A DNA stretch of 64,000 bases from Nitrospirota bacterium (GTDB taxonomy: Bacteria; Nitrospirota; UBA9217). The translations under genes were made by a program, and so were the position numbers. The notes under the pieces are model-generated. The model had not been told where the DNA came from. It searched no databases and saw nothing but the letters and a program-made list of their open reading frames with translations. The stretch spans positions 1 through 64,000 of the forward strand of contig CAVVUN010000008.1 of NCBI GenBank assembly GCA_963751455.1, in the 5' to 3' direction. Each line of letters starts with the position of its first letter. Position 1 is the first letter of the stretch. This document shows positions 37,474 to 52,399 of this stretch, one piece after another.

Positions 37474-37496
37474 AGGAATGTGACATAGCAGAATGC

Positions 37497-37528
37497 AAAA
37501 AGCTGAGCCTATCAAGACTCAGCTTTTT
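37497..37528. terminator. Bidirectional terminator at the left edge of the island
   Basis: AAAAAGCTGAG/CTCAGCTTTTT perfect IR with A and T tails. Confidence 0.85.
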
Positions 37529-37547
37529 TATTAGGATTAACGCTAAC

Positions 37548-38267
37548 CTAAGCGTGTACTAACTTTCGCTCTGGAACAACCGACACAAATAGCATAATGC
37601 TAGGCCGGTCAGGACGGCCGTTCATCTTTTCAATGACGGCCGTAATCTGGCTCCTGTTATTCAACCAACGATGAAAGGCGTCTAGTAAACCTCGCCCGAT
37701 ATAGCCGATCTTCTTTCCATTGACAATGACCATGATCGCCTGCGGATCATAGAGGTTCCCGGGCTCCGGCTGGAGAGTTGCACTCATTCCAACAGCCAGT
37801 TCCATCGTCATTCCTTCATAATAACGAAAGCCTGCCACTTCTGCGAGTAGTTCGCAAGGTTCGTCCACCTGATCAAAGGGGTGAACGATGGAAAAACCAT
37901 CACTGGGCAGTTTTGCGCCAGAATAACCGAGCAGAGCAAAATCTGATATTTGCACCGAAGGCGAGATTCTCAGAGATTCAAGGTATTTGTTATAATCTGA
38001 ACGTTCGCGCGGAGGAAGGCGCAGCATGATCGTCTCTATGACACCTTCCTTATAAACACGATCAGTCTTTGGAAAGGCAGGATACCCCTCGAAACCGTTT
38101 TCCCGTGCTCTCTTGAAATCCGCGCTCTGAGTTAAATAGTGCAATTCAATGGCGTGATTCGTCTTAATAAGTTCGGCAACAATTCGGCGGGCTCGGTCAC
38201 CACCCTCGGGACCTTGCCAGACCAGATAAAGCCGTTGAGGCTCAATTATGTGTGTAATAAGATTCAT
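37548..38267 (-). CDS. HipS/HipA-N-like domain fused to a C-terminal HIRAN domain
   Basis: N-part LYLVWQ...GFEGYPAFP...RLPPRER; C-part VAGFRYY...LQPEPGNLYDPQAIMV...KIGYI is the HIRAN signature. Confidence 0.85.
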   Translation of the reverse strand: MNLITHIIEPQRLYLVWQGPEGGDRARRIVAELIKTNHAIELHYLTQSADFKRARENGFEGYPAFPKTDRVYKEGVIETIMLRLPPRERSDYNKYLESLRISPSVQISDFALLGYSGAKLPSDGFSIVHPFDQVDEPCELLAEVAGFRYYEGMTMELAVGMSATLQPEPGNLYDPQAIMVIVNGKKIGYIGRGLLDAFHRWLNNRSQITAVIEKMNGRPDRPSIMLFVSVVPERKLVHA

Positions 38268-39232
38268 GACCGCTGCTCGATTGTATCTATCAAAAACTGA
38301 CGTCGAAAACTGATGAGCTTCATGATGAATGCAGCCCTGGATTCCGATAACCGCGAAGGGACCCCGAATGAAGTCAGTCTGTCTACGAAATACTTTAGCT
38401 CATCAACATTAAAAAGTAAAGATTTTAACATTGCCTCTTTCTTTTCAGGATATCTCGCGATCAGCCGCACTAGCATATCAGAGTGACTAAGGCGGGTAGA
38501 ATCTCGCATATCCCACTTTATGTGGTGCGTACCTTTGTTAATATAATGAACAAGATACGCGGAATCATTGAACTTCGCAAAATTCTTTTCAACGATCTCG
38601 CCACCCATGGCAGTGCCATTGTCAAACGCGGGAGAAAAGGAGGCGCATCCCTTCATTACTTCTTCACCCTTCCATAAAATGCCCCAGTTATCTTGATGCC
38701 GGTCGGTGTTTCCAATCAAGGCATCAAATGTAAACATTTTACACCAAGACTCAATTCCATCCACCACTAACAAACCTCGATCCGTCATAGCTTTTGTCAG
38801 CGCCAACACTGACCTGAAATTGTGTTGAGTTCCTTTTTCTCTGTCGTAATTCTGAATCATTCTGACCATGTAATCGCCACCATCGACGTAGCGGACCGGT
38901 TGTTCCCCCGGATAACCATAGAACCACTCGATCAGTGCTCCGCTCTGATTCGTTGTGCTGTTAAAGGCCACAAACGCGGGCGGAACGGGAACATCCATCA
39001 GACCACCGATAAAGTAAGCAATAATTTCTATCCAGAATTGTTCCGGATATCGATGACTGGAATGCTTGAATAAGTAGCGATGGTCAGGGATAATAAAACC
39101 TGGGGCCCCGGTTTGTGGAGAGAACAATGCGTTCTTTGCTCGCGCTCCCTTGGGATAGGGGTCGAATTCGCTATCCGGCTGCCAAGTGCTGACGTCAATG
39201 GCTTCAGATGGTTGTTGTTTCTTGATAATCAT
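38264..39232 (-). CDS. HipA/CtkA-like Ser/Thr kinase lacking the HipA N-subdomain
   Basis: KGARAK Gly loop, YLFK, EIIA, FDALIGNTDRHQDNWG catalytic loop, SPAFDNG. Confidence 0.92.
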   Translation of the reverse strand: MIIKKQQPSEAIDVSTWQPDSEFDPYPKGARAKNALFSPQTGAPGFIIPDHRYLFKHSSHRYPEQFWIEIIAYFIGGLMDVPVPPAFVAFNSTTNQSGALIEWFYGYPGEQPVRYVDGGDYMVRMIQNYDREKGTQHNFRSVLALTKAMTDRGLLVVDGIESWCKMFTFDALIGNTDRHQDNWGILWKGEEVMKGCASFSPAFDNGTAMGGEIVEKNFAKFNDSAYLVHYINKGTHHIKWDMRDSTRLSHSDMLVRLIARYPEKKEAMLKSLLFNVDELKYFVDRLTSFGVPSRLSESRAAFIMKLISFRRQFLIDTIEQRS

Positions 39233-39244
39233 GTCTGAGAAAAG

Positions 39245-40012
39245 TCAGAATCCCTCGCCCACTGGATGTATTGGATGAGCCCAAGCAGGTATCATTTTCC
39301 ATGCATCGCGCATACGGGCATGAAGCATTGCTGTTTTCGGTTCATATTGCCGGACGATCGTCCAAAACCGTTGTGTGTGACGTGGTTCGACAATATGACA
39401 CAGCTCATGATGCATCACATATCGGACCAAATCCCTGGGAATGAATAACAACTTGCTGTTAAGACTGATAACGCGGTCTTTTGAGCAACTTCCCCAGCGT
39501 GTGCGTTGGTTTTTAATGAGCAATCCTCTGAATTTCAACTTAGCTTCCGCGGAATGTGTTTGCAAGCTCAGTCGTAACGTTTCCTTGGCTCTGCGTGCAA
39601 TCCAACGTCTCAAGGCCGCATTGCAGCGTTCAGCATCGGTAATAGCGCCAAACACCAGAACGCGGCCCGGCCGATCAGTGCGCGCGCCGACAGTCTTACC
39701 CCGAGTTTCTCGGTATTCCACTCGCCATGATTCAGCAAGGGCTGGAAGATCAAAAGCTTGTGGCGGCGTTGACTTTTTTTCTCCAAGCAGATGCCGCACT
39801 TCATCAAATTGCGCAAGACGTGCCGCAATCCAATCGCTTTTCCCAGCAACCAGTTCTGCAACACGCTTGCGATTCAGTCCCTTTGGCGCGATAACGGTCA
39901 AGCCTGTTCGCGCTGTCATCTTGAGCCGTAAAGTCCGAGACTTAGCGGAAGAGAGGATTTCATAATCGAGATGTCGTCCATTGGGCAGGGCGATCTGTGC
40001 TGTACGCCCCAT
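39245..40012 (-). CDS. M48/YgjP (DUF45, SprT-like) zinc metallohydrolase
   Basis: QRTRWGSCS, LNSKL, YVMHHELCH...HTQRFW. Confidence 0.92.
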   Translation of the reverse strand: MGRTAQIALPNGRHLDYEILSSAKSRTLRLKMTARTGLTVIAPKGLNRKRVAELVAGKSDWIAARLAQFDEVRHLLGEKKSTPPQAFDLPALAESWRVEYRETRGKTVGARTDRPGRVLVFGAITDAERCNAALRRWIARRAKETLRLSLQTHSAEAKLKFRGLLIKNQRTRWGSCSKDRVISLNSKLLFIPRDLVRYVMHHELCHIVEPRHTQRFWTIVRQYEPKTAMLHARMRDAWKMIPAWAHPIHPVGEGF

Positions 40013-40015
40013 GGT

Positions 40016-43000
40016 TTATTCCTTATCTCCTGGCTTATAATGCCTGCGCTTCAGCACCTGCAATAACGTGCTGATGAATGCCATGGCATCACCCGCAAGC
40101 AACCCGAGAATCGAAAATCGCGTAGCCAGGAGCAGCAATAAGGCCCTACTCAATTCGGGATCCACTGTACTGCTGTTCCACCAGCCAGGAAAACAGTGTT
40201 TATCCGCTTCCTCAAGAATGGCGGCTGCGACTTCGACAGCCTGCGTTTCAGTCAGCGCTATGTTCCGTCCCTTGATTTTGACTGCGAGCTGTTGAGCAAT
40301 CGGGCGCTTGACTTCCTCAACTGCCGCGCGCACGGCAACAGTCAGCGCCTCTAATTCCTGAAGCAGAGCAATGCCCGCCAGAGTGCCCGCCCGTTTCTCA
40401 TCTATAATACGCTGAAGCTTCTCTGAAAGCGTCCTGAAGTTTTCATCCTGATCCAGCCTGATACGAAGTTCAGCGGAAAGCATTGCCTCGATATCCAGCG
40501 CCTTTGCATCTGGCTTCTTATCTTTGAGCTTAGTCAGAAAATTCTCGTCTAATACATACGACGGAAACTCTTTATCCAACTCCTCCACGTCGATATGTTC
40601 ACGTATCAACTCCCGTGTGCGCGCCGCGTCTTCAGCCCTGGCTTCCATAGCCAACTCAGGGTAGAACTTCTTTCTGTAGAGTATGTACAGTTTGGTCAGC
40701 CACGCATAGTGACGCACATAGTCACGGAGAGCTTCATCCGGCTGCAAGGCCTCATACAGCACGCGCAGATTGCGATACCCGGTATCAAACTGCTTTTCGG
40801 CGCTTTCAACGTCCCGCAGGATTTTCATAGCGTTAATGTACGAATCATGCGACCCATCGCGAGGAACCGTTTCTTCCGGGAAAAGCGCCCACAGCGCATC
40901 AAACTGCTTTCGGAAGTGTTCACGGATACTCTCAAAGGGAAATGCAATATCGCCCAACTCCTCAGGCCTGTAGTTCAGCGCCTCATTCAGGTTGTCGAAG
41001 ATTCCGTAGTAGTCGAGGATCAGACCATGACCTTTCAATTCATTATATGGACGGTTCACGCGGGCGATAGTTTGCAACAGGCCATGATCACGAAGACTTT
41101 TGTCCAGATAAAGCGCTTGCAAGATAGGCGCGTCGAATCCGGTCAAAAGCATGTCACATACGACAAGCATTTCGACTTTTCGAAAGGGTTTGTCCTGGTG
41201 CTCTGGCTGGTCGGACTTCGCGGGGATCAGAAATTCGTTCAGCAGCTTCTTTCGTTGAGCCTCGCCAAGATAAAGCGTCTTTACCTCGGCCGAATCATCC
41301 TTGGGCGCTTCCGAGATCACCGCCATGACAGCCTCAGACCCGAGCCGATCTCGTAACGCCTTCGTGTAGAGTTCAACGGTATCCTTGTTTTTTGTAACCA
41401 ACATTGCTTTGAAGCCGTTGACGCGAACATGTTCATTAAAATGCTCTACCGCGTCATCGGCGATTTGATTTACACGCTTGGGCAATTTGAGCAGCACATC
41501 AAGGGTGGACGATTCGCTGATCAGTTTGTTCTGCTCTGCCACGGAAAGAGGACCGAATTCTTTCTTAAAAGCAATGTCCAGCTTAGCACCATTAAGTTGC
41601 CAATCAGTCTTACGCGGCTGCCAGTGAATGGGCTTGACCACGCCGTCGCGCAAGGCATCGGTGATCGTATAAGGCTTGCCCATATAACGCTCGATGGTAC
41701 CGTCGTCCTTTTTCTGCCCCCAGGCCAAAGGTGTATTGTGGTCGTCCTTTTCGATCGGCGTACCGGTGAAACCGAACAACGAAGCCCCTGTCACGGCTGC
41801 GCGCATATATGTGCCCAGATCGCGCTCCTGCGTCCGGTGCGCTTCGTCAGCCATGACGATAACGTTTCGGCGCTTGTTGGTGATGTTCTTCGGCATCCCC
41901 TCGAACAGGTGTACGGTGGTGAGGATCACGCCCCGGTAATCGCCCGCAAGTTTAGCCTCCAAATCGCGCTTGCTGTCCGCGACAAGCACATTTTTCGTGC
42001 CCGTTGCCATAAGCTCGCGGTCCATCTGATCGCCCAACTGCTCACGGTCTACCAACAGGATTACAGTGGGCGATTTGAGTTTCGGATCTTCCCAGAGGCT
42101 GCGGGCGGCGTAGATCATAGTCAGCGTTTTGCCGGAGCCCTGCGTGTGCCAGATCAGGCCGCGCCGCTTCTCCTGCGGCAGGGTAAGGTCAGTGGCTCGG
42201 AGCATGATGTCCTTCACTGCCTGATACTGCTGGTAACGCACCACCACCTTTTCGGTCTTGCCGTCCTTGGTGACAAAAACGATGAAGTGGCGGATGAAGT
42301 CCAGCATGTTGGCCCGGTCGAATAGTCCATAGAGCGACACCTTCATTTCATCGAACTCGTCGATTTCGTGCGGCCAGGGATCGCGCCATTGCAGCCAAAA
42401 CTGCAAGCGACGCCCCGGCACACCGTACATCATGCGGGTTTCGTTCACACCCACGCCGTAGGCGTTGGTGTAGAATAGCTGGTTGATCTCCTCGGAATAC
42501 ATACCGAGTTGTTGTGCACCTTCGCGCCAGTCCGGTTTGCTGCGGCTGGCGGTCTTTGCCTCGATCACCACTACCGGAATGCCGTTGATCAGTAGCACAA
42601 TATCCGGTCTCCGGGGCGAGTTGCCCTCCACCGGAAACTGATTCGTCACCCACCAAGCGTTGGCATCCAGATCGTCATAGTCGATCAGTCGCACGTCTTT
42701 CGTGGTTTCAGCCGGATCAAATTGATGATTGACACCTTCCTTCAGCCATTTGAGCCATTGCGCATTATCTCGGCAACCGCGTAGCTTGGTAATGATTGCG
42801 TCAACCCGCGCATCATCCGTGAGAATGTCCGGGTTAAGTGCTCTCAACTTTTCCCGCAACAACGGCAACAGCAGCACCTCGCGCTCATCCGGACGCAGCG
42901 CGGTCACCTGCTCGCGCGAACGATAGGTCCAGCCCAGCGACTTCAGTTGTAAGTGTTCGATAATTTCCCGTTCAACTGTCGTCTCTTCGTTGAACAGGCG

Positions 43001-43039
43001 CTGAACTTCCGGCACGGCTGGTGTGTTCTGCTCATTCAT
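40016..43039 (-). CDS. hsdR: Type I restriction endonuclease subunit R
   Basis: RPDIVLLINGIPVVVIEAK nuclease motif, HTQGSGKT, DEAH, FGFTGTP, DMLLTGFDAP, LQTIARVNR; ATG 43039 with AGGAG RBS overlaps the hsdS stop. Confidence 0.96.
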   Translation of the reverse strand: MNEQNTPAVPEVQRLFNEETTVEREIIEHLQLKSLGWTYRSREQVTALRPDEREVLLLPLLREKLRALNPDILTDDARVDAIITKLRGCRDNAQWLKWLKEGVNHQFDPAETTKDVRLIDYDDLDANAWWVTNQFPVEGNSPRRPDIVLLINGIPVVVIEAKTASRSKPDWREGAQQLGMYSEEINQLFYTNAYGVGVNETRMMYGVPGRRLQFWLQWRDPWPHEIDEFDEMKVSLYGLFDRANMLDFIRHFIVFVTKDGKTEKVVVRYQQYQAVKDIMLRATDLTLPQEKRRGLIWHTQGSGKTLTMIYAARSLWEDPKLKSPTVILLVDREQLGDQMDRELMATGTKNVLVADSKRDLEAKLAGDYRGVILTTVHLFEGMPKNITNKRRNVIVMADEAHRTQERDLGTYMRAAVTGASLFGFTGTPIEKDDHNTPLAWGQKKDDGTIERYMGKPYTITDALRDGVVKPIHWQPRKTDWQLNGAKLDIAFKKEFGPLSVAEQNKLISESSTLDVLLKLPKRVNQIADDAVEHFNEHVRVNGFKAMLVTKNKDTVELYTKALRDRLGSEAVMAVISEAPKDDSAEVKTLYLGEAQRKKLLNEFLIPAKSDQPEHQDKPFRKVEMLVVCDMLLTGFDAPILQALYLDKSLRDHGLLQTIARVNRPYNELKGHGLILDYYGIFDNLNEALNYRPEELGDIAFPFESIREHFRKQFDALWALFPEETVPRDGSHDSYINAMKILRDVESAEKQFDTGYRNLRVLYEALQPDEALRDYVRHYAWLTKLYILYRKKFYPELAMEARAEDAARTRELIREHIDVEELDKEFPSYVLDENFLTKLKDKKPDAKALDIEAMLSAELRIRLDQDENFRTLSEKLQRIIDEKRAGTLAGIALLQELEALTVAVRAAVEEVKRPIAQQLAVKIKGRNIALTETQAVEVAAAILEEADKHCFPGWWNSSTVDPELSRALLLLLATRFSILGLLAGDAMAFISTLLQVLKRRHYKPGDKE

Positions 43040-44294
43040 TAAGCACTCCTTCGGGAATGCGTATCTTGCCGGTGAGCAGGTTTTGAAGGAGGCACTTATT
43101 GACCTCCTGCAACGAGGAAAGTCTTTTTTTGACAGAATCCAACGCCGCATATGCGGCAGCAACGGTAGATACTATTTCGGTTTGTCTTGTCGGTGATGGA
43201 AGAAGTATCGGCAAAGACAGAATGTCCCTGCGCTTTATCTTTACCATACTTCCACTTGTACCACTAGCGCGTGATTTTAGCCAGCGTCTCGCATTGGAGC
43301 TTCGAAGCAATAGCTCTGCGAAAGCTGGCGATACGATGTTGCTATTGACACGAATCCGCATCATTAAATCAGGATAGTAAGCAACTTCGGGCTGCCCAAC
43401 ATATCTTCCCGCTCTGCCAACGAGTTCGGGGGTGTTTGATCGACTAACCAGAATATCATCAATTTCGAGCTTGAATGGCAAAAGCCCATCATCGTCTATT
43501 GGTGCTGGTTTGATACCGTCAGAGTTGAATCTTTCATCGGTCAATGCATCCAGCGACAAGACCCATGCACCGGTTGGATCTTGGGGGCATGCAGGTGAAT
43601 AGCCATTTCGTATTTTTTCCCTGATAATGCTTGCGAACGTCGTGGGTTGCCATCTTTCATCCGTGGACGGAACAAGCAGTGCAGCGGTTAGAGATCGTGT
43701 AAACTCCCGCGTCGCATCCAACTCTGCTTTTGTTTTGGCAATGGCATCACTGGCCAGTTTCAGGGCACTAGCAATGCGACGTTGTTCGTTCTCCTCAGGA
43801 ATACGAATCAATATTTTCTTGATTTCGCGGCGGGAAACCTCGAGAAAAGTTGTTCCGGCTCCGAGTCTAACCAAGGTTGGCCTTATGATTTCGATTAGAT
43901 AAAAGAGATATTCCGCAGAGAAACCAGCTTTTGGAACAAGGGTAGCAAAACCTTGGTTAATGGCCATTGGCACGCGATTGATCTTTGCAGCGCCAATCGT
44001 CGCCCGGCTGGTCATTAGCACTGAATTCTCGGGTACCAGCGTTGACTGCCTCAAACCTGATCGAGAAATATAGCGTTCAGTCGAGACAATTTCATTACCC
44101 TCGGTTCCTGTAATGTCTGTTGGCGTCGCCCATGGTATTTCCTGCGGATGCCAATAGTCAGCGATGTCGGTGTCTGGTGTACCACCACCCAGAACATTCA
44201 CGGCTTTGGCCAAGGTATCAGTTGGCCATTCGCAGCTGTGGAAGAACTGCGACAGAGGCAGTTTGTATATAACGTCTTGCATAGGGTGGCTCAT
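43032..44294 (-). CDS. hsdS: Type I RM specificity subunit with two TRDs
   Basis: GGGTP...YW...IPW TRD1, P..EQRRIA spacer, second TRD with DILVSRSN, C-terminal LLQNLLTGKIR. Confidence 0.95.
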   Translation of the reverse strand: MSHPMQDVIYKLPLSQFFHSCEWPTDTLAKAVNVLGGGTPDTDIADYWHPQEIPWATPTDITGTEGNEIVSTERYISRSGLRQSTLVPENSVLMTSRATIGAAKINRVPMAINQGFATLVPKAGFSAEYLFYLIEIIRPTLVRLGAGTTFLEVSRREIKKILIRIPEENEQRRIASALKLASDAIAKTKAELDATREFTRSLTAALLVPSTDERWQPTTFASIIREKIRNGYSPACPQDPTGAWVLSLDALTDERFNSDGIKPAPIDDDGLLPFKLEIDDILVSRSNTPELVGRAGRYVGQPEVAYYPDLMMRIRVNSNIVSPAFAELLLRSSNARRWLKSRASGTSGSMVKIKRRDILSLPILLPSPTRQTEIVSTVAAAYAALDSVKKRLSSLQEVNKCLLQNLLTGKIRIPEGVLNE

Positions 44295-46474
44295 ACTGAT
44301 GCTCCGATGTTCAACGCTTTCAAAATCTGATCGAGTTTCTCCTTTGCCTCGGCATTGGCTTTTTCTACGATTCGGAGGTTTTTGATTGCCTCATCAAGCG
44401 GCACAACCTTCTCCGGCTCATACGTATCCACGTACCTTGGAAGGTTCAGGTTGAACTCGTTCTCCTCAATCTGGACTTTGTCCACCACGGCAAAGTAACG
44501 GCGCGCTTCGCCCGGGTTAGCAAGAATACGGTTTAGGTCAGTAGCGGCTTCCCTCAAGTGTGTGATTTCACGTTCGGCTGTGCGTTTGACCTCCTGCTCA
44601 CGGCTGTCACGCTCTTCCTGGAGCTTCCTCAACTCCTTCACTGCTCTTGCGACCTGCTTGGTTCGGTCTTTGAGCGCGTCGATAAGTTTTTTTCGGGCGT
44701 CATCGTACGTCTTCTTTGGCTTTGCCAGCTTGGACTTTTGAGCTGTTTTTTTGCTGCGCTCGGCAGCCTGAATTTTCGCCTGCATATTCTCAACGGCGGC
44801 CTTCAACGGGACCAGCGGATGGAAGAACGGATGTTCAGGAGTGATGGCTTCATCCACAGACTTGGCCTTGAAGTCCAGCGCATCGAGGACGGCATGTTCA
44901 GCTTCTAAATCTGTCAGCGGGGCCAGCACCGGGCCGAAGGCATCCTCGATGTCTTTTAGCCGTTCATCACGATGTTCTTCTACCTCGCGGATCAATTGCG
45001 CTTCATGTTCGACAATCAGTTGCTTAGCCAGTTCCAAATCACCGAATGCTCGCCAAGGCACCAGGATACGCATCAGGTCCGATGGTCGCAGCAGGTTTTG
45101 GGGATTACCTTTCTGATAGTGGCGGGACGCCCAGATCATGAGCGTCTTGCCCTTGCGGGCCTTGGGTTTGTTCTTGTTCAGCATTATCAAACAGGCAGGC
45201 ACGCCGTTGCCGTAAAAGAGTTTGGAGGGCAGCACCACGATGCATTCGATAAGATCAGCCTCGATGAAACCGCGCCGGATTATGTATTCCGCATCCGCCT
45301 TCTGGTTCTGTCCGTCTTCCTCTTCCGTCTGCTCGGGCTGGCCCCGGAACAGCACACCCTGGGACATGACCACCATCCCCTTCCCCGCTTCTCCGGTTTT
45401 CGGATTGAGGTCTTTCAGCGAATCCGCGATCTGCTGCAACCATGCCCAGTCACCATTCGAAGCAGGCGGCAGTCCGAAAGAAAATCGTCCAAACTTGTCT
45501 CCGGAGACTACAGTGTCATACCCCCAGTCTTCCAGCGAGAATGGTGGATTCATTATGATTCGGTCGAATTGTTTAATAACATTATTGCGTAAGAGATGGC
45601 GAGGGTCGCGCAGTGAGTCACCCTGCTTGTGGTCCCAAACGGGTACGCCATGCAGGATCATGTTGATGCGCGAGATGTTGTAAGTGGCGACGTTAGATTC
45701 CTGGCCGTGCAGGATCAACTGCCGTACATCTCCGCCATGCTTCTTCACGTAACGGAGGCACTGCAGGAGCAGACCGCCGGAACCATGGGACCAGTCGCAG
45801 ATGCTCATGCCGGGCTTGGGCTCCAGCATCTCGGACATAAGAAAACCCACTTCGGCCGGAGTATAGAACTCACCGCTGGATTTGCCGGCTTTGCTGGCGA
45901 AGTTGCGGATCAGGTATTCATAAGCATTGCCGAACAGGTCGTCCGAGACATGAGCGCGGTCGAACTTCTGGCTGCTGAAATGATTAATGAGGTTTACGAG
46001 TTTATCGCGCGGGAGTTCATCCTGCTTGTTGAAATCAATCTTGCCGGTCAGGATGCCGTCGAAATTATTCTGACGGTGGGCGTTGGCCCGCTCAATGGCA
46101 AGCATGGCATCGTTGAGCGCCTGGCCGAGATGGCCTTTTGCTGTCCGTGCAACAGTATCCCAGGCCGACTTTTCCGGGACAACGAAGTGGTGCAATTCTG
46201 GTTGTCGAGCAAGATACTTGGCTTGTTTTTCAGATATCCCGGCAACGTTCAGTACGGTGGTTTCACGACCCACATCTTCCAAAAAACAGTCGTTGATTCG
46301 TTTATAGAAGAGCAGTGCGAACACATAGCCACGGAATTCCGAGTGATCCGCATTGCCTCGTAGAATATTTGCAGCCGTATCGAGGTAACTCTCGAGTTCG
46401 CTTTGAGTCATGCGCCGTACAGGCCGAACTACAATAGGTTTATCGAGAGTGGATAGTAATTCGTCAAGTTTCAT
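44291..46474 (-). CDS. hsdM: Type I RM N6-adenine methyltransferase subunit M with a long coiled-coil insertion
   Basis: AANILRG, GNAYEYLI..FA...GEFYTP, motif I variant DWSHGSGG, NPPF, C-terminal EFNLNLPRYV. Confidence 0.95.
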   Translation of the reverse strand: MKLDELLSTLDKPIVVRPVRRMTQSELESYLDTAANILRGNADHSEFRGYVFALLFYKRINDCFLEDVGRETTVLNVAGISEKQAKYLARQPELHHFVVPEKSAWDTVARTAKGHLGQALNDAMLAIERANAHRQNNFDGILTGKIDFNKQDELPRDKLVNLINHFSSQKFDRAHVSDDLFGNAYEYLIRNFASKAGKSSGEFYTPAEVGFLMSEMLEPKPGMSICDWSHGSGGLLLQCLRYVKKHGGDVRQLILHGQESNVATYNISRINMILHGVPVWDHKQGDSLRDPRHLLRNNVIKQFDRIIMNPPFSLEDWGYDTVVSGDKFGRFSFGLPPASNGDWAWLQQIADSLKDLNPKTGEAGKGMVVMSQGVLFRGQPEQTEEEDGQNQKADAEYIIRRGFIEADLIECIVVLPSKLFYGNGVPACLIMLNKNKPKARKGKTLMIWASRHYQKGNPQNLLRPSDLMRILVPWRAFGDLELAKQLIVEHEAQLIREVEEHRDERLKDIEDAFGPVLAPLTDLEAEHAVLDALDFKAKSVDEAITPEHPFFHPLVPLKAAVENMQAKIQAAERSKKTAQKSKLAKPKKTYDDARKKLIDALKDRTKQVARAVKELRKLQEERDSREQEVKRTAEREITHLREAATDLNRILANPGEARRYFAVVDKVQIEENEFNLNLPRYVDTYEPEKVVPLDEAIKNLRIVEKANAEAKEKLDQILKALNIGASV

Positions 46475-46733
46475 TTATGCTCCAAGGGGGAATTTCTCAG
46501 TGGCCACAGAGATTTTTCTGAGGATAAACAAAGCGGGCTTGAGGACTGAGCAGAACAGCACGACAATAACATAAAACTGCTCTTTAAGTCCAGCATTACA
46601 AATGATTATTCAGGCTTTTGCTCTGTGGAATTGAAGCAGAGGATCAAAGGGTAGGCAGAAAAACGTGGCTCTTCCAGATTTAAGCTTTTCACCAATAATG
46701 ATAATGTTAATTCTGGTTCAATGGAGAGAACTT

Positions 46734-46934
46734 TTATTTCGACACCGCATTGTCGGCTGCAATAAGTCTCTTAGTTTCATTTTCATAGGCGTCCAGCAGC
46801 GCACTTACTCCCAAAATAGCTGTCAACGTGGAAATTGGGCGTCGCTTATCACGAGAAAGCGCTAATGCAATGCGATTCCACTGATCAGTTTCTTCAGTAA
46901 TGTGGACCGTTATCTCACCCGATTTGCTTTCCAT
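46734..46934 (-). CDS. Small hypothetical protein (66 aa), possibly ribbon-helix-helix-like
   Basis: Strong GAGGAGG RBS; alternating ITVHI strand followed by helical segments. Confidence 0.55.
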   Translation of the reverse strand: MESKSGEITVHITEETDQWNRIALALSRDKRRPISTLTAILGVSALLDAYENETKRLIAADNAVSK

Positions 46935-46970
46935 ACAGCGAACCTCCTCTAAAAAAGTATATCATTAAGA

Positions 46971-47858
46971 TCAAGCTTTCGCATTGCCCGACACTGATTT
47001 CCTTGCTATGCAGTAGTTACCCCTCATAAGTTGAATAAAGTTGAACATTTGATCAGCGAATGCACAAAGAATTTGTACTTGAAATCCTTTTTTAAGACGA
47101 TTCCGCGACAATGTGTCTACTGCTAAAAACCCTACGTCCTCCGTCGCTCCATCCTGACCTACCTTATTAGTATCTGCATACCGAACCGGGACTACGATTG
47201 TGCTCTTATAATAATTTATCCAATTAGGCCGCTGATTTCGATACTCTTTGTCTTTTGTTAAATCTGGCGAGTGATAAAATGAAGGCCGACCTGGAACGAA
47301 TTTTAATGAATCATCGAATGCTGAATTTGCTCCAGTTTTTACTTCAAACACTTTTGGATGGTCATCATCTCTGGTAGACTTCATTTCGCTGCGAACATAT
47401 GTTTCGCAGAAATATCTATTGCCATTCTTAGTAAGCAACTTAAATGTAACTACGCAAGGGCGGCGTGTGAGTGTGGAATATATTACTGCTATTCTTTGAC
47501 AAACAGCCTCGAGAACCGTTCTCTCGTTCTGCAATAGAACGGTAGTATCAGAAATTGGATCTCTTTCAGAAAACATCTGGCAGAGTGTATTACGATATAA
47601 ATGATTGATCTCGTGCATCTGATAAAAACATTTTTCTACCGCCTGTTTATCAGAGCGTACACGAAAAGAATAGAGTGCTGTTGCGAAGAAAATTAGAAGA
47701 AGCAAACAGTAGAGGATCTTCTGATAGAGTTCAATTTGGACTCCATGAAGCATTTCGTAAACAATGTATCCGAGTCCAATTATGGATGCAATAGAACCAG
47801 CAAAAGCCACCACGCGGCTATCGAGGATATCATAAATTGACGCAGTTGTTCTTATCAT
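46971..47858 (-). CDS. Two-TM membrane protein with C-terminal GAF-like domain
   Basis: Two N-terminal hydrophobic helices; YKSTIVVPVR...VGFLAVDT GAF-like ending; AT-rich DNA. Confidence 0.65.
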   Translation of the reverse strand: MIRTTASIYDILDSRVVAFAGSIASIIGLGYIVYEMLHGVQIELYQKILYCLLLLIFFATALYSFRVRSDKQAVEKCFYQMHEINHLYRNTLCQMFSERDPISDTTVLLQNERTVLEAVCQRIAVIYSTLTRRPCVVTFKLLTKNGNRYFCETYVRSEMKSTRDDDHPKVFEVKTGANSAFDDSLKFVPGRPSFYHSPDLTKDKEYRNQRPNWINYYKSTIVVPVRYADTNKVGQDGATEDVGFLAVDTLSRNRLKKGFQVQILCAFADQMFNFIQLMRGNYCIARKSVSGNAKA

Positions 47859-48033
47859 TTTTTCAAGAGTGATGCTGTAACGACTGAAGCGATTGCACGC
47901 GGTTTACACTCGTAGATCGAGAACTTACTATCGTGAAGGGTTAATTGATTATATTGATGTTCAATTTATTGTCAAGGGAAAATACAACGATTCAGAGTTG
48001 AAGTACATCAGAGAAAAAATGGCGAGCGTGTGC

Positions 48034-48179
48034 TTACATCTTCACTTTTTTCACCTTCCTCGTTCCTTCGTACAATTCATACTCCAATAACCTGCACTCG
48101 ATGCCGTTGTTCCAGAACGGAATGCTGCGCTTCGGTTTTATGAGTGCCGGACTGCCGTTAAACATGCCGTGATGCCTTT
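48034..48179 (-). pseudogene. Displaced duplicate of the 3' end of the rlmL-like gene
   Basis: Translates KPKRSIPFWNNGIECRLLEYELYEGTRKVKKVKM* vs KPKRSIPFWNSGIECRLLEYELYEGTRKVKKVKPDG* of 51233-52399; 83/98 nt identical by hand count. Confidence 0.9.
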
Positions 48180-48252
48180 GCTGGCGATCACATTTCGATC
48201 GTATTCTTCTTCTGGTGCTCCGGACAGTTCCGGTTTGCGGTCGGGCTACAAT

Positions 48253-51096
48253 TCAGCTACTGATTGCGCTGCCTCCTCTCCTCTCGCTCATCAACGGATC
48301 GACCAAGGCGCGGTATGCATCTTCCCCTCGCGGCCACAATTTTGCGATGAGGTCCATGCCTGCGTGCCGGTAAATGTCGACCCATTCATCCTTGTACAAA
48401 ACGGAAAGTTTCGGATTCAGAACATACCACCCCTGCCGCTCGCGCCGAAAAAGCTTCCGGCTGTACGGGTTCGTGCTGTCCTCTTCATTTTTCGACAGAA
48501 GCCCTGAGAGGTAGGTCCTCTTTTTACGGTACGCGGGCACGACGCTCTCCGGCAGCAATGCCGTCATCTCGGCAAGCTTGACTGCATTGATGGACGCCAT
48601 GATCGGGTCGCTGAAGCGTCTGTGCAAAAGAGCGAAGATAACGGCAAACAGGAGAAACTCTCCCTGACTGGCGTCAAGCTTTACCAGCCGTTCGTCGACT
48701 TTGAGGCTTACGTGCGACGGCGCGAGCATCTCGTGCACCGAAGCAAACTGTTTCGCGGCGTATTCCGGTTCATGGACAGCGCGTTCCAACGCCCCGAGCC
48801 AGGCCGTAACGCCGTAGCTGTCAACAAGCTCCCCGTCCGCGCCCGCGGCAAGCAGTTCTTTGACTAGAGCAGCGTTTCCGGGCAGCGCCGCCAGCATAAG
48901 CGGCGTCTTGTTGAAAGCCGTGCGAAGATCGATTCCGTATGTCTCGCACTGCCTCAATTTATCCTTATAGAACCTCCCCGTGTAATCCTGATAATTTCTC
49001 TGGATTTGACCTGCGCGCTGCTGGTTGTACAGCTCATAATTTAAAAATAGATGTCCGCTCACATTGTCGAAATACGGCTTCGCCTTATCGAAACCCGATT
49101 GATAGAGCTGTTCGAGAAGCTGGCGCTTGTCGTAGAAGAGAGCGTATTCCAGAAGCGTTTTTTTCGGCTTCTGCGACACTTCTTTCGGGTCTGTTGCGCG
49201 GGTCAGCAGATAGAGGACCCGATCAGCCGTGCATACTTCCCAGGGCACTGGCTGGGTTTTGAGGATGTCGCGCCTGATCTCTTCCGCCTGTTCAAGCCTG
49301 CCCTGAAGTTCGAGTTTTCGCGCTTCCGCCTGCCACTCTTCCCTGCTCGATTGCTTTGCGTCAACATCAACGTCTTCCCGCGCGTCCTTTATCCCGAGTA
49401 AGCCGATCAGCGGATGGTTCAGGTCGCTCTCTATCAGGTACAGCTTCTGAACGGCGCGAGTGATTGCCACGTAGAGAGAGTTCACGAAGAATTTGTAGAC
49501 CTCGAGCGACTTGTCCGTCTTGTCCCGGGGCCTGCGGTACTCAAGGTCGCCGGACAGGTCCTCCTCGCTTACCCCGTCCACGAGCTCCCCGAATAGGGAG
49601 CGCTCCTTCGAGATAAAGTTCACGAGAACCACGTTTTCGTATTCCAGCCCTTTCGCTTCATGGATGCTGAAGAGCAGCGGTGTGTCAAAAAACTCCCGCG
49701 CCGCGGGCTTGTCCTCGTCCCGCATGACCAGGACCGCGAATTTTGTCGAGCGTCTTGTCTTTTTGCCGAGTTCCCGTTTCGCCTTGTCCGTGTCCCGTAC
49801 GAGCACGAGTTCGCCTGCCGCGTCCGAAACGCTTTTCATAAGGTAATTGCTTTCCCGGTCTATGGACCCGAACCGCTTCTGCTTGATCCGGAGCAGCGTG
49901 TTCGCAAGTCCTGTCACTTCCGCCGAATTTCTGAAATTTGACTGGAGCATCCGAGTCACTTCGGCGGCCTGAAGTTCCTCCGCATTGTAAAGCATGGTCT
50001 TGAGGCCGCTCCAGGAAAAGTGATTGGGATGCACGATCTGATTGGAGTCCCCACACAGGATGAAATTCCTAAATTCCTTGAGGCTGTGAAGGATCAGCTG
50101 AAGCTGAACGTTCGTGATGTCCTGCACCTCGTCCACGACGACGAAATCATGAACTTGTTTTATCAGTTGCAGGTATTCGTGGGCCAGAATATTGGGATCG
50201 TAGAGCCCGTTTTCCTTGAGGAAGACGAGATACTTTTCAAAAAGCGTATAGACCAGTTCGCGCTCTTCGGAAAGAAAGATGGACTGCCGGACCCCGAGAG
50301 AGAGATACTCCTCGCGGGAAAGCCAGGGTTTGTCCACAACGGAGCCGGTCAGGACTCCCCTGAACTCCTCATACAGCCTGTGGGCATCCGATACCCGCTG
50401 GTGCTTCGGGATCCGCATGATCCAGCCTGCGAACGCGAGATAGGAGATTTCTTTTCCTTCCGGCACCCTCAGGGTCTCCAGAAATTCGCGAAAGGAAAAA
50501 AAGGAAATTTCCTGGTCTTCATTCTCATAATGATTCGCGTAGTAGAGGTTGCGGGAGTTGTCCGCAAGGTAGCGCGAGAGGGTCACGTACAGAATCCGCC
50601 CCTGTGCCTGCTTCATCTTTTCAAGGGTGAGCGCGGTCTTTCCGCTCCCTGCCGGGCCGATGATGAGCACCGGCGGCAGGCGCTGAAAAGTGTCCTGCTG
50701 GTCCGGATCGAAGGAAATAATTTTATCGAGAAAATGAAAACGGGTAAGGGCAGGGTTGACATACCGGAGAGCGGGCAGTTCTTCGGGTGATTCGGGCGCT
50801 TTATCCAGCGCGGGTATCTTTGCTTCGTCGACGGGGATGCCCCGGAGAAATTTGGATTTCTCGTAGGCGTGCTGATGAACGACCTCCAGGATCAGGGCAT
50901 ATTGTTCACCGCCGAAGGCCATAAGCTTGAACAGCAGCCGGTTCGTGTCGTCGAGCTTCGCCCGGTACAGGCCATGGTCCGCCAGCTTCTTGACGTCGGC
51001 GGAATAGAAATCGCCGTTCTCAAGAAAGGTTCGGACCTTGCCGTACTGCCGCTTTACCTTTGACGTATCGAGGTCGATGTATTCGATTACTTTCAA
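48253..51096 (-). CDS. SF1 (UvrD/Rep-like) helicase with N-terminal RelE/ParE-like domain and C-terminal ankyrin repeat
   Basis: GPAGSGKT, VVDEVQD, GDSNQ, NFRNS, SIHEAKGLE, YVAITRA; TPLMLAALPGNAALVKELLAAGAD ankyrin; N-terminal VKKL...LYRAKL...RLLF...LILEV..H.Y. Confidence 0.85.
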   Translation of the reverse strand: MKVIEYIDLDTSKVKRQYGKVRTFLENGDFYSADVKKLADHGLYRAKLDDTNRLLFKLMAFGGEQYALILEVVHQHAYEKSKFLRGIPVDEAKIPALDKAPESPEELPALRYVNPALTRFHFLDKIISFDPDQQDTFQRLPPVLIIGPAGSGKTALTLEKMKQAQGRILYVTLSRYLADNSRNLYYANHYENEDQEISFFSFREFLETLRVPEGKEISYLAFAGWIMRIPKHQRVSDAHRLYEEFRGVLTGSVVDKPWLSREEYLSLGVRQSIFLSEERELVYTLFEKYLVFLKENGLYDPNILAHEYLQLIKQVHDFVVVDEVQDITNVQLQLILHSLKEFRNFILCGDSNQIVHPNHFSWSGLKTMLYNAEELQAAEVTRMLQSNFRNSAEVTGLANTLLRIKQKRFGSIDRESNYLMKSVSDAAGELVLVRDTDKAKRELGKKTRRSTKFAVLVMRDEDKPAAREFFDTPLLFSIHEAKGLEYENVVLVNFISKERSLFGELVDGVSEEDLSGDLEYRRPRDKTDKSLEVYKFFVNSLYVAITRAVQKLYLIESDLNHPLIGLLGIKDAREDVDVDAKQSSREEWQAEARKLELQGRLEQAEEIRRDILKTQPVPWEVCTADRVLYLLTRATDPKEVSQKPKKTLLEYALFYDKRQLLEQLYQSGFDKAKPYFDNVSGHLFLNYELYNQQRAGQIQRNYQDYTGRFYKDKLRQCETYGIDLRTAFNKTPLMLAALPGNAALVKELLAAGADGELVDSYGVTAWLGALERAVHEPEYAAKQFASVHEMLAPSHVSLKVDERLVKLDASQGEFLLFAVIFALLHRRFSDPIMASINAVKLAEMTALLPESVVPAYRKKRTYLSGLLSKNEEDSTNPYSRKLFRRERQGWYVLNPKLSVLYKDEWVDIYRHAGMDLIAKLWPRGEDAYRALVDPLMSERRGGSAISS

Positions 51097-51232
51097 GACG
51101 CGAGGCCTCGGACAGCGGATTGATGGAAGGCTTTTTTCATCTCAGGTCATAAATCTACTATAGACGGGGAGAAAGAGCAAGGGTTGAGACTCTGGCCGCT
51201 TGTGGGGGGGGGCAGGGCGGGTCGGGATTGGT

Positions 51233-52399
51233 TTACCCGTCAGGTTTCACTTTTTTAACCTTCCTCGTCCCCTCGTACAGCTCATACTCCAGGAGCCTGC
51301 ACTCTATGCCGCTGTTCCAGAACGGGATGCTCCTTTTCGGCTTGAGGCTCACCTTTTTTGCAAGCGCGGGGTTCCCAGTGAACACATAGCCTGTATATCC
51401 TTTACACTTGTTCTTGAAGAAATCGCCGATGCCTTTGTAGAGGCCTTCAAGACTGGCAATCTCTCCCATGCGTTCGCCATACGGAGGGTTCATCACGATA
51501 ATGCCTGACCCGGACAAAGGCGTATCGGCATAGTCGCACACACTGAATTCGATCAAATGTTCGACTCCGGCCGTCGTCGCATTCTTCTTTGCGGCTTCTA
51601 CGGCCTCGGTACTTATATCGGTTGCGATGATCCTGCCGGAAATTGATTTTTTCGCTTGCTGTTTTCCGGCCTCCCTCGTTTTATTCCACGCTGACTCGTT
51701 GAATTCTTTTATATGCATAAACCCGAAGTTGCTTCTGAGCAGGGCCGGAGGCCGATTGAGGCCTATCAGAGCGGCCTCAATAGCGAGCGCTCCGCTGCCG
51801 CACATGGGATTGATAAAGTGGCCCTCTCCATGCCAGTTCGTGGCCAGCACCACCGCTGCTGCAAGCGTCTCCTGCATCGGGGCTTCCAGCGGGATCTTCC
51901 GATATCCCCGGCGGGACAGCGGCTCTCCTGAGGTATCGAGATAGACAACTGCCCGCTCTTCCTTCCAGTACAGATGCACAACTGACCTGTCCCGGTCAGG
52001 CCCGGAGTCCGGCCGCCTGCCGGTTTTCTGTTTAATACGATCAACAATCGCATCCTTCGCCTTCAGGGTCGCGTAGCGGGTATCCCGTATTGTTTCGTTT
52101 TCAACACCGGAGGTTACACAGACGTATCCCTCTCCGGGGATCAGCGCTTCCCATTCGATTTTCGAAAGCGCGCGATACAGATCTTCGGCATTCTTTGCTT
52201 TGAATTCTGCAAGGGTGAGCAAAACGCGGTGTGCGGTACGGAGAGAGACATTCAGCAGAAACGTGTCCTCGAGAACGCCTTCGGTCTCCACGCCGGCAAC
52301 CTGTTCGGACAATACCGGAAAGTTTAGCGACAGCAGTTCCTGTTTTAAAAAAGGAGGGATGCCCTTGGCGCAGGTTATTAGGATTTTTGATTTGACCAT
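51233..52399 (-). CDS. THUMP-domain rRNA methyltransferase (RlmL-like)
   Basis: LRTAHRVL, KDAIVD, LDTSGEPLSRRGYR, APMQETLAAA, PMCGSG, NPPYGER. Confidence 0.93.
   Translation of the reverse strand: MVKSKILITCAKGIPPFLKQELLSLNFPVLSEQVAGVETEGVLEDTFLLNVSLRTAHRVLLTLAEFKAKNAEDLYRALSKIEWEALIPGEGYVCVTSGVENETIRDTRYATLKAKDAIVDRIKQKTGRRPDSGPDRDRSVVHLYWKEERAVVYLDTSGEPLSRRGYRKIPLEAPMQETLAAAVVLATNWHGEGHFINPMCGSGALAIEAALIGLNRPPALLRSNFGFMHIKEFNESAWNKTREAGKQQAKKSISGRIIATDISTEAVEAAKKNATTAGVEHLIEFSVCDYADTPLSGSGIIVMNPPYGERMGEIASLEGLYKGIGDFFKNKCKGYTGYVFTGNPALAKKVSLKPKRSIPFWNSGIECRLLEYELYEGTRKVKKVKPDG

Follow-up and report, generated by a model that had tools for sequence, protein, structure and literature searches.

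What do a kinase gene and a HIRAN-domain gene do at the end of a type I restriction-modification (RM) operon? An earlier, sequence-only reading of this Nitrospirota locus took the six genes concerned for one defence system, in which the HIRAN protein restrains the kinase until DNA ends or RM inhibition set off growth arrest. We examined this proposal in the window, i.e., the 64,000 nucleotides at positions 1 to 64,000 of contig CAVVUN010000008.1, and across a survey of related kinase loci. The outcome is that the two genes are likely an add-on defence gene pair, and not part of a new six-gene system.

In the ORF list of the window, all six genes lie on the minus strand. The first three are open frames matching type I RM families, namely hsdM (44291..46474), a methyltransferase of the long form with 727 aa (Pfam N6_Mtase, E 3e-74, and HsdM_N; PADLOC MTase_I); hsdS (43032..44294), a specificity subunit with two recognition domains (two Pfam Methylase_S matches; PADLOC Specificity_I, E 6e-54); and hsdR (40016..43039), a restriction subunit that has 1007 aa when read from the ATG at 43039 (TIGR00348 above cut-off with 489 bits; Pfam HSDR_N). 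The fourth gene (39245..40012) had been called M48. It does encode a metallopeptidase domain, with a HELCH motif, but Pfam assigns it to the YgjP-like family (PF01863, E 2.6e-45), and Peptidase_M48 (PF01435) gave no match. A short HipA-superfamily kinase of the HipI/HipL type (38264..39232; PADLOC PDC-M03A, E 4e-41) and a HipS-like plus HIRAN partner of the HipN type (37548..38267; PADLOC PDC-M03B, E 5.5e-32; PF08797) complete the series. The junction sequences agree to the base with the layout first described: hsdM and hsdS overlap by 4 bp, hsdS and hsdR by 8 bp (hsdR running from the ATG at 43039 to the stop ending at 40016), gaps of 3 bp and 12 bp lie on either side of the ygjP-like gene, and the kinase and partner genes overlap in ATGA. 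No HipB-like HTH gene accompanies the pair, again as first read.

The terminator proposed after the HIRAN gene was recovered by RNA folding, although the pattern scan had not listed it; it is a hairpin with A/T runs on either side at about 37495..37530, and likely terminates transcription from both sides, including that of the convergent aminotransferase gene. Likewise, the promoter-pattern scan found no minus-strand promoter-like site inside the ygjP-like gene, in line with the claim that it holds no promoter for the genes behind it, and we infer a shared promoter. The scan returned 19 promoter-like sites, near the chance expectation of 13.5 +/- 4.0. A perfect TTGACA-16-TATAAT lies at 47975-47948. 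Because two further minus-strand ORFs (66 aa, and 295 aa with 40% GC; 46734..47858) stand behind this site and upstream of hsdM, the transcript may comprise eight genes instead of six. These two ORFs belong with the operon to a 13.8-kb insertion (37474..51232) between the aminotransferase gene and an rlmL-like gene, as delimited by comparison with relatives. The insertion is strain-variable: two relatives, G019 (L249) and G002 (L250), have only about 60 bp at this place, i.e., empty sites, and in G011 (L251) the same site holds a different insert of 3.3 kb. A stretch of about 100 bp at 48041-48138, considered as a conserved RNA element, proved to be a relic copy of the 3' end of the rlmL-like gene. 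Rfam gave nothing at gathering score, and the tRNA search found none.

The first four genes form a common, ordinary unit. A YgjP-like gene follows HsdR in 27/29 related HsdR loci, so ygjP is its usual fourth gene; a literature search on YgjP in RM operons returned none among the matches listed. Plasmid relatives of this HsdR are all less than 60% identical to it, and viral contigs scanned with a single HsdR sequence yielded nothing.

The kinase has intact catalytic motifs, as had been claimed. An alignment of 75 homologues shows no variation at Lys56, Glu69 and D177-R-H-x-x-N182, and keeps Asp204 in at least 90%. With 322 aa, no N-subdomain, Gly-loop residues G29 and K33, and catalytic and Mg-binding motifs, it has the make-up of a hipIN kinase. 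The PDC-M03A match spans residues 11-320, whereas that to Pfam HipA_C is weak (E 1.3e-5, below cut-off). The modelled fold is nearest to CtkA (TM 0.74) and also resembles HipT/HipA, with about 0.45-0.54 for HipT. CapK/CapS, considered as a relative, was rejected as an unrelated GHKL kinase. By analogy with HipA and HipT, one might guess at a translation factor or a tRNA synthetase as the target.

The partner joins a HipS/HipA-N-like half to a HIRAN domain, as proposed; Pfam (HIRAN, E 5.6e-10) and fold comparison agree on this, and the PDC-M03B match spans residues 10-218. In the structure model, residues of about 10-131, the N-terminal half, adopt the HipS/HipA-N fold and align to 7vkb_B (Z 9.9), 7ab3_B (Z 9.4) and 5k98_A (Z 9.3), while the C-terminal half aligns to HIRAN structures with Z of 11.6-13.1. 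The predicted kinase-partner complex scored 0.82, against 0.00 for the best of three controls; the mark for this score was reached by 116/157 solved pairs and 2/215 mismatched pairs. The runs share at least 94% of their contacts, and the partner has a pLDDT of at least 88. In the model, kinase residues 20-32 meet partner residues 19-124, and the HIRAN pocket residues are not among the contacts. The score may in part reflect likeness, because HipS-HipT complexes have been solved (7AB3, 8EZR, 7VKB), though identity to these is only 13-16%. The idea that the partner restrains the kinase gains a predicted binding mode over the Gly-rich loop, and such binding would likely keep the kinase off. The pocket residues characteristic of HLTF are intact, i.e., R148 Y149 Y150 (R-Y-Y), N171 Y173 D174 (N-x-Y-D) and Y189/R192 (G-[HY]-x-x-[KR]), whose HLTF counterparts have DNA-binding roles, and this sequence match is consistent with binding of DNA ends. 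However, the motif is missing in 23/55 loci unlinked to RM and in L237-L246, a distant clade, so DNA-end sensing would not be universal in the family.

The survey comprised 175 non-redundant kinase loci, 145 cellular and 30 viral. Eight of 224 loci were left out for want of a called ORF over the kinase match (L025, L056, L067, L071, L219-L221 and L245); L245, which reads hsdM-hsdS-kinase match-HIRAN-hsdR, would add one type I case. The partner is present in 142/143 scorable loci, so kinase and HIRAN protein are a fixed gene pair, as the sequence-only reading had it. The dedicated six-gene system did not survive the same survey: the layout hsdMSR-ygjP-kinase-HIRAN recurs in 0/175 loci, with one partial look-alike, L095, and most loci have no RM gene. 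No RM-like gene lies within three genes in 113/145 cellular and 30/30 viral loci, and some RM-like system does so in 32/145 cellular loci. Among the viral loci, 8/30 encode fused one-chain forms, and in a tree built without the sequences of Gerdes and colleagues the fused phage forms fall inside the large clade of the window kinase. A P2-type replication gene A occurs in ten of the 30; in the rows examined, the pair precedes the portal gene there, a position that matches the anti-phage hotspot region of P2 (PMC9122126). A plasmid search gave one weak kinase match and a phage search three records; viral contigs scanned with a single kinase sequence gave nothing.

The pair by itself is not new: it is already PADLOC's PDC-M03, a HipA + HIRAN candidate (Payne et al., bioRxiv 10.1101/2024.01.29.577857), and the hipIN of Gerdes, Baerentsen and Brodersen 2021 (PMC8262856). 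The two window genes are same-strand neighbours, and their products match the models PDC-M03A and PDC-M03B. The Payne preprint defines PDCs by their embedding in loci of BREX, DISARM or type I RM, which already implied a connection with these systems, and PDC-M03 is not named in its main text; PDCs lie between RM genes, whereas the window pair is appended after ygjP. Like hipIN, the window pair is a short kinase gene followed by a HipS-like plus HIRAN gene with an overlap of a few bases, but the 13/14 hipIN rows covered here are Firmicutes. Its motifs YPEQFW, GALIEWFY and IIEP-RL-L-WQ, compared by eye, are nearer to the fused Gram-negative HipL rows of that paper, which suggests a split form of the HipL branch. 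The sequence of DNA-end sensing and abortive infection was also proposed there for hipIN, so the idea is not new; restriction is not mentioned in the main text of the preprint. As in hipBST (7AB3, 8EZR, 7VKB), a HipS-fold protein is the predicted binding partner of a short HipA-family kinase, but the window pair lacks a HipB-like gene, has a HIRAN domain added, and its kinase model is nearer to CtkA than to HipT. DS-6/HipAD (PMC13092281) is likewise a two-gene system, in which the HipA-family kinase is paired with a protein other than HipB, namely DUF3037-DUF1829 and not HipS-HIRAN; its validated anti-phage activity needs the catalytic residue. Our literature search found no report of toxicity or defence by hipIN or PDC-M03.

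Since pairing is near-constant and most cellular and all viral loci have no RM neighbour, we favour a mobile hipIN/PDC-M03 module over a part of the RM system. That is, the last two genes would be such a module, added behind an ordinary hsdM-hsdS-hsdR-ygjP operon within the insertion and acting as a DNA-end-triggered defence independent of RM, a reading that we rate a little above even. The HipS-like half would clamp the Gly-rich loop and likely keep the kinase off; the likely ligand of the HIRAN pocket is a free 3' DNA end, whose binding would set the kinase free; and the released kinase would probably arrest growth and defend the cell without need for RM enzymes. Among several sources of DNA ends for the sensor, RM cutting could be one.

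In the RM-coupled reading, which we consider rather unlikely, the pair was selected into restriction operons, where restriction-made ends or RM inhibition would activate the kinase, as PrrC and PARIS back up RM. Co-occurrence with type I RM is real but confined to a minority: 16/145 cellular loci have a same-strand type I gene no more than three genes away, far above a background of 0.85% (38/4,494) that counts host-genome genes and not control defence genes, and defence genes cluster generally. The figure is 8/82 in collection scans with at least 3 kb upstream, and the RM enrichment is also given as 14/93 against 0.85%. An RM gene lies directly upstream within 70 bp in 14/145 loci; in ten, which involve type I, type III, ISP and Dpd-like genes, the junction measures -4 to +9 bp, and in L244, L246 and L247 the pair is embedded between hsdS and hsdR. 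The enrichment and the ten tight junctions fit a coupled role equally well. L091 and L237 have HsdM proteins 94% identical and, in the same slot, kinases only 24% alike. The HIRAN pocket is kept in 23/29 RM-linked against 32/55 unlinked partners, with losses clustered in few clades. We also entertain, as a doubtful variant, a plug-in second line for any RM type, repeatedly appended to operons of the type I, type III, ISP and Dpd/DISARM-like kinds and once swapped for a 24%-identical cousin because HIRAN reads restriction-made ends and the kinase then arrests growth. Against coupling, a special tie to the L091-type HsdM was rejected, as 11 further genomes with it lack the pair and have, after hsdS, mostly genes without a PADLOC match. 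The kinase stands beside the HsdR family of the window in 0/55 genomes with a match (400 searched in the phylum); in the six of the 55 that carry both, the two genes are separated by about 95 kb or more, or belong to different contigs. The closest homologues have different neighbours: L091 (75%) stands behind another hsdS and L093 (81%) behind a type III Res gene, and L096 (74%) has no RM gene; the pairs L037/L038 and L082/L084, with kinases at least 90% alike, differ in RM neighbour, and on the tree the type I label changes 11 times over 16 rows, at least eight changes being forced by strong branches. Like the window pair, PrrC in EcoprrI and PARIS place a potential effector of growth arrest within an RM locus or close to one, but effector and putative sensor differ. 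PrrC is found almost nowhere but inside type I RM loci, whereas window-type pairs lie mostly outside them; a near-obligate linkage of that kind is rejected by the 16/145 cellular and 0/30 viral loci. Nor does any one RM protein accompany the pair throughout, which makes a physical guard of the PrrC kind unlikely.

Two further explanations were weighed. The pair could be a selfish or stress toxin-antitoxin pair, serving island addiction or slower growth after DNA damage and having no specific anti-phage role. The absence of the insertion from relatives fits this, as do the many loci near integrases, in prophages or between housekeeping genes, and a fused homologue cloned with its exonuclease neighbour (pFR108) is listed as tested but not validated in one published test with eight coliphages. 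Yet one-chain forms cannot act by antitoxin decay, the P2 hotspot and the location in RM operons point to defence, and DS-6/HipAD shows that a HipA-family kinase system can be anti-phage; we hold this explanation unlikely. Less probable still, and in our view very unlikely, is a partner that activates or targets the kinase, supplying the N-subdomain that HipA carries in cis and recruiting the kinase to DNA ends, so that phage or repair proteins would be phosphorylated and the cell would survive. The likeness of the partner's N-terminal half to HipA's own subdomain (5k98_A) and the fused HipL forms speak for it, as does the conserved Tyr26 of the Gly-loop. In HipA the autophosphorylated Ser occupies the place of this Tyr, so kinase control may differ from that of HipA/HipT. 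However, in hipBST a protein of this fold neutralises HipT, and the modelled contacts cover the ATP-binding loop of the kinase.

The window locus is thus one more copy of a catalogued candidate system, to which the survey adds a map of module positions, a confident complex model and residues to mutate. The compact operon, with its tight junction, is a convenient construct for testing the coupling to restriction. If that coupling is true, the pair would provide the first shown function for bacterial HIRAN domains and link restriction cuts directly to abortive infection, a question open since 2021.

The operon at 37548..46474 (minus strand) consists of six ORFs, in the order hsdM, hsdS, hsdR, a ygjP-like gene, a kinase gene (38264..39232) and the gene of its partner (37548..38267). 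All five junctions are as first read from the sequence: the first two genes overlap by 4 bp and the next pair by 8 bp, 3 bp and then 12 bp separate the genes that follow, and the last two share an ATGA. Beyond the last gene, at ~37495-37530, is a hairpin bordered on each side by A/T runs. Family scans identify HsdM, HsdS, HsdR, a YgjP-like domain (PF01863), a weak HipA_C match and a HIRAN domain; the closest named protein matches are from Nitrospirota MAGs. The fourth gene, earlier labelled M48, is thus YgjP-like, and Peptidase_M48 (PF01435) gave no match. An internal promoter in ygjP had been named as evidence against the RM-guarding reading; ygjP contains no promoter-like site on the minus strand, with such sites occurring across the region at about the chance level (19 found vs 13.5 ± 4.0). 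The transcript may, judging from sequence, be longer than six genes, because two additional minus-strand ORFs lie behind a site at 47975-47948 that matches the promoter consensus perfectly.

The operon lies inside a 13.8-kb insertion between an aminotransferase gene and an rlmL-like gene. Only ~60 bp separate these two genes in two of the genomes compared (G019, G002); in a third (G011) the distance is 3.3 kb. A relic copy of the rlmL-like 3′ end (48041-48200; 85% over 98 bp vs 51246-51343) and that 3′ end itself enclose a 947-aa helicase gene, an arrangement that suggests integration at the end of the rlmL-like gene. The helicase (48253-51096, minus strand) is UvrD-like with an ankyrin-like stretch, has a 69% identical paralogue in genome G000 (C15:268502-271315), and weakly matches GajB/AbiO/Nhi helicase models. 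The ORF at 46971-47858 (minus strand; 295 aa, 40% GC) has a hydrophobic N-terminus, no Pfam matches and a perfect sigma-70 consensus 90 bp upstream; its Atlas neighbours are unnamed clusters, in a few of which 11-14% of members contain GAF domains.

The catalytic motifs of the kinase are indeed intact: all 75 aligned kinases (the query and 74 of the 120 homologues listed) share K56, E69, D177, R178, H179 and N182, and D204 is almost invariant among them. Its model (pLDDT 94) is closest in fold to CtkA (TM 0.74), then to HipT and HipA. In HipA, a motif in the Gly-rich loop carries the autophosphorylated Ser; the conserved Tyr26 (39155-39157) occupies that position here. The partner (pLDDT 94) joins a HipS/HipA-N fold (residues ~10-131; Z 9.3-9.9, rmsd ~3 Å, ~100 residues) to a HIRAN fold (136-233; Z 11.6-13.1), as had been proposed. 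Its R148-Y150, N171/Y173/D174 and Y189/R192 align with the DNA-binding motifs R-Y-Y, N-x-Y-D and G-H of HLTF.

Modelling of the kinase-partner complex supports binding, with a score of 0.82, while the highest of 3 controls reached 0.00; the runs share at least 94% of contacts, with partner pLDDT at least 88. The mark used was reached by 116/157 solved and 2/215 mismatched pairs, counts that are only roughly valid for the alignments used here, and the pass may partly reflect likeness to solved complexes, because HipS-HipT complexes are already among these. The modelled contacts run from partner residues 19-124, including the nearly invariant R83, R89 and D91, to kinase residues 20-32 and 112-132. 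Because the HIRAN pocket residues are not among the listed interface contacts, the pocket may stay free in the predicted complex.

Both genes are already catalogued, and are to that extent not novel: the kinase matches PADLOC PDC-M03A (E 4e-41) and the partner PDC-M03B (E 5.5e-32). By the definition of Payne et al. 2024 (bioRxiv 10.1101/2024.01.29.577857), a PDC is a cassette that lies within a BREX, DISARM or type I RM system; the main text of that study, as available, does not name M03, and its supplementary tables may already give the RM context. PDC-M03 is elsewhere given as HipA + HIRAN (PMC13245101). The architecture was named hipIN by Gerdes et al. 2021 (PMC8262856), who call the fused version hipL; in their proposal, HIRAN acts as a sensor of the ends of phage DNA and sets off abortive infection. 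HipA_C + HIRAN cassettes are among the contents of prophage hotspots (Rousset et al. 2022, PMC9122126), and a fused form with its exonuclease neighbour was cloned as pFR108, which in the available part of that paper appears in the table of tested systems and is absent from those validated on eight coliphages. The literature searched, which largely lacked subscription journals, yielded no experimental characterisation of the pair.

Loci of kinase homologues were taken from the best 80 of 339 genome matches, the best 80 of 415 metagenome matches, 51 viral matches and 13 positions in 400 host-phylum genomes. Eight of these 224 were dropped as matches without a called ORF, and clustering of the remainder at 90% identity left 175 (145 cellular, 30 viral); neighbouring genes were assigned through Pfam and PADLOC matches of cluster representatives. 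Of the 143 surveyed loci with sufficient downstream DNA, 142 have the partner. A same-strand type I gene lies among the three nearest ORFs in 16/145 cellular loci (14/93 with at least 3 kb upstream; 8/82 in the collection scans alone), and an RM-like system in either orientation in 32/145; none of the 30 viral loci has one within that distance. The rough type I background is 38 of 4,494 genes of the host genome, and enrichment over it may be no more than the usual clustering of defence genes. Co-occurrence with type I genes is borne out, but the full arrangement did not recur in the 175 loci. The single surveyed locus with a YgjP-like gene is L095 (hsdR-ygjP-unknown-kinase-partner; the contig begins inside hsdR).

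An RM gene is directly upstream within 70 bp in 14 surveyed loci, ten of them at -4 to +9 bp; these genes variously encode HsdS, type III Res, an ISP enzyme or Dpd-like helicases. In two Magnetococcales loci (L047, L061) the pair is embedded, with upstream gaps of -4 to +9 bp, in an operon of a DruE/DrmB-like helicase, a DpdE-like helicase and a type IIG methyltransferase. In four Endozoicomonadaceae loci (L049, L057, L064, L069) the type I RM genes beside the pair are on the opposite strand, and proximity there therefore does not imply co-transcription. Viral loci contain a P2-type replication gene in 10/30 cases and the fused form in 8/30.

The pair's link to RM recurs but is loose. Among the closest kinases, the gene upstream is another hsdS in L091 (75%) and a type III Res in L093 (81%), and L096 (74%) has no RM gene there; even kinases at least 90% alike have different neighbours (L037/L038, L082/L084). 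On a quick kinase tree of 124 rows, which excluded kinases below 270 aa and cellular loci with less than 3 kb upstream and no RM, the type I label, carried by 16 rows, requires 11 changes, of which strong branches force at least 8. The window's HsdR family is found at E ≤ 1e-60 in 55 of the 400 host-phylum genomes. Because HsdR is followed by a YgjP-like gene in 27 of the best 29 of these loci, and the 13 kinase positions in the 400 genomes all lie away from the HsdR matches of this family, we conclude that hsdMSR-ygjP is the standard unit and the kinase-partner pair is added cargo.

The sequence-only reading had the pair guarding the RM system, and PrrC is the model for such coupling (PMC3506569). 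Repeated adjacency agrees with this, as does one slot after hsdS that is filled by two distant versions of the pair: between L091:238-5356 and L237:6578-11758, HsdM is 94% identical, hsdS is homologous and DNA similarity reaches the 3′ end of hsdS, and the kinases just downstream are 24% alike. However, the pair is absent there in eleven further genomes with this type of HsdM (69-87%). We retain true coupling as a rival that is unlikely to be correct. Of the RM-linked partners, 23/29 retain the motif of the HIRAN pocket, vs 32/55 unlinked ones; its losses map to few clades, however, and the Asp is missing from four RM-linked members of the distant clade (L237-L246). One gammaproteobacterial partner clade (L020, L026, L028-L030, L033, L036, L040, L065, L073, L079, L110, L112, L129) has lost N-x-Y-D and kept the HipS-like half, and none of its loci has an RM neighbour.

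DS-6/HipAD, validated in defence (PMC13092281), likewise has a HipA-family kinase; the defence role of the window's pair is a proposal, and that it serves instead in addiction or stress seems to us more doubtful still than RM coupling. We infer both the inhibition of the kinase by the partner and the binding of DNA by HIRAN; the converse, a partner that activates the kinase, we consider improbable. Our somewhat favoured reading is that of an autonomous kinase module, in which the partner would restrain the kinase, DNA ends would likely be sensed, and the pair would be transcribed from the promoter of the RM operon while acting autonomously of RM. The pair in this Nitrospirota genome is a further instance of a known candidate kind.
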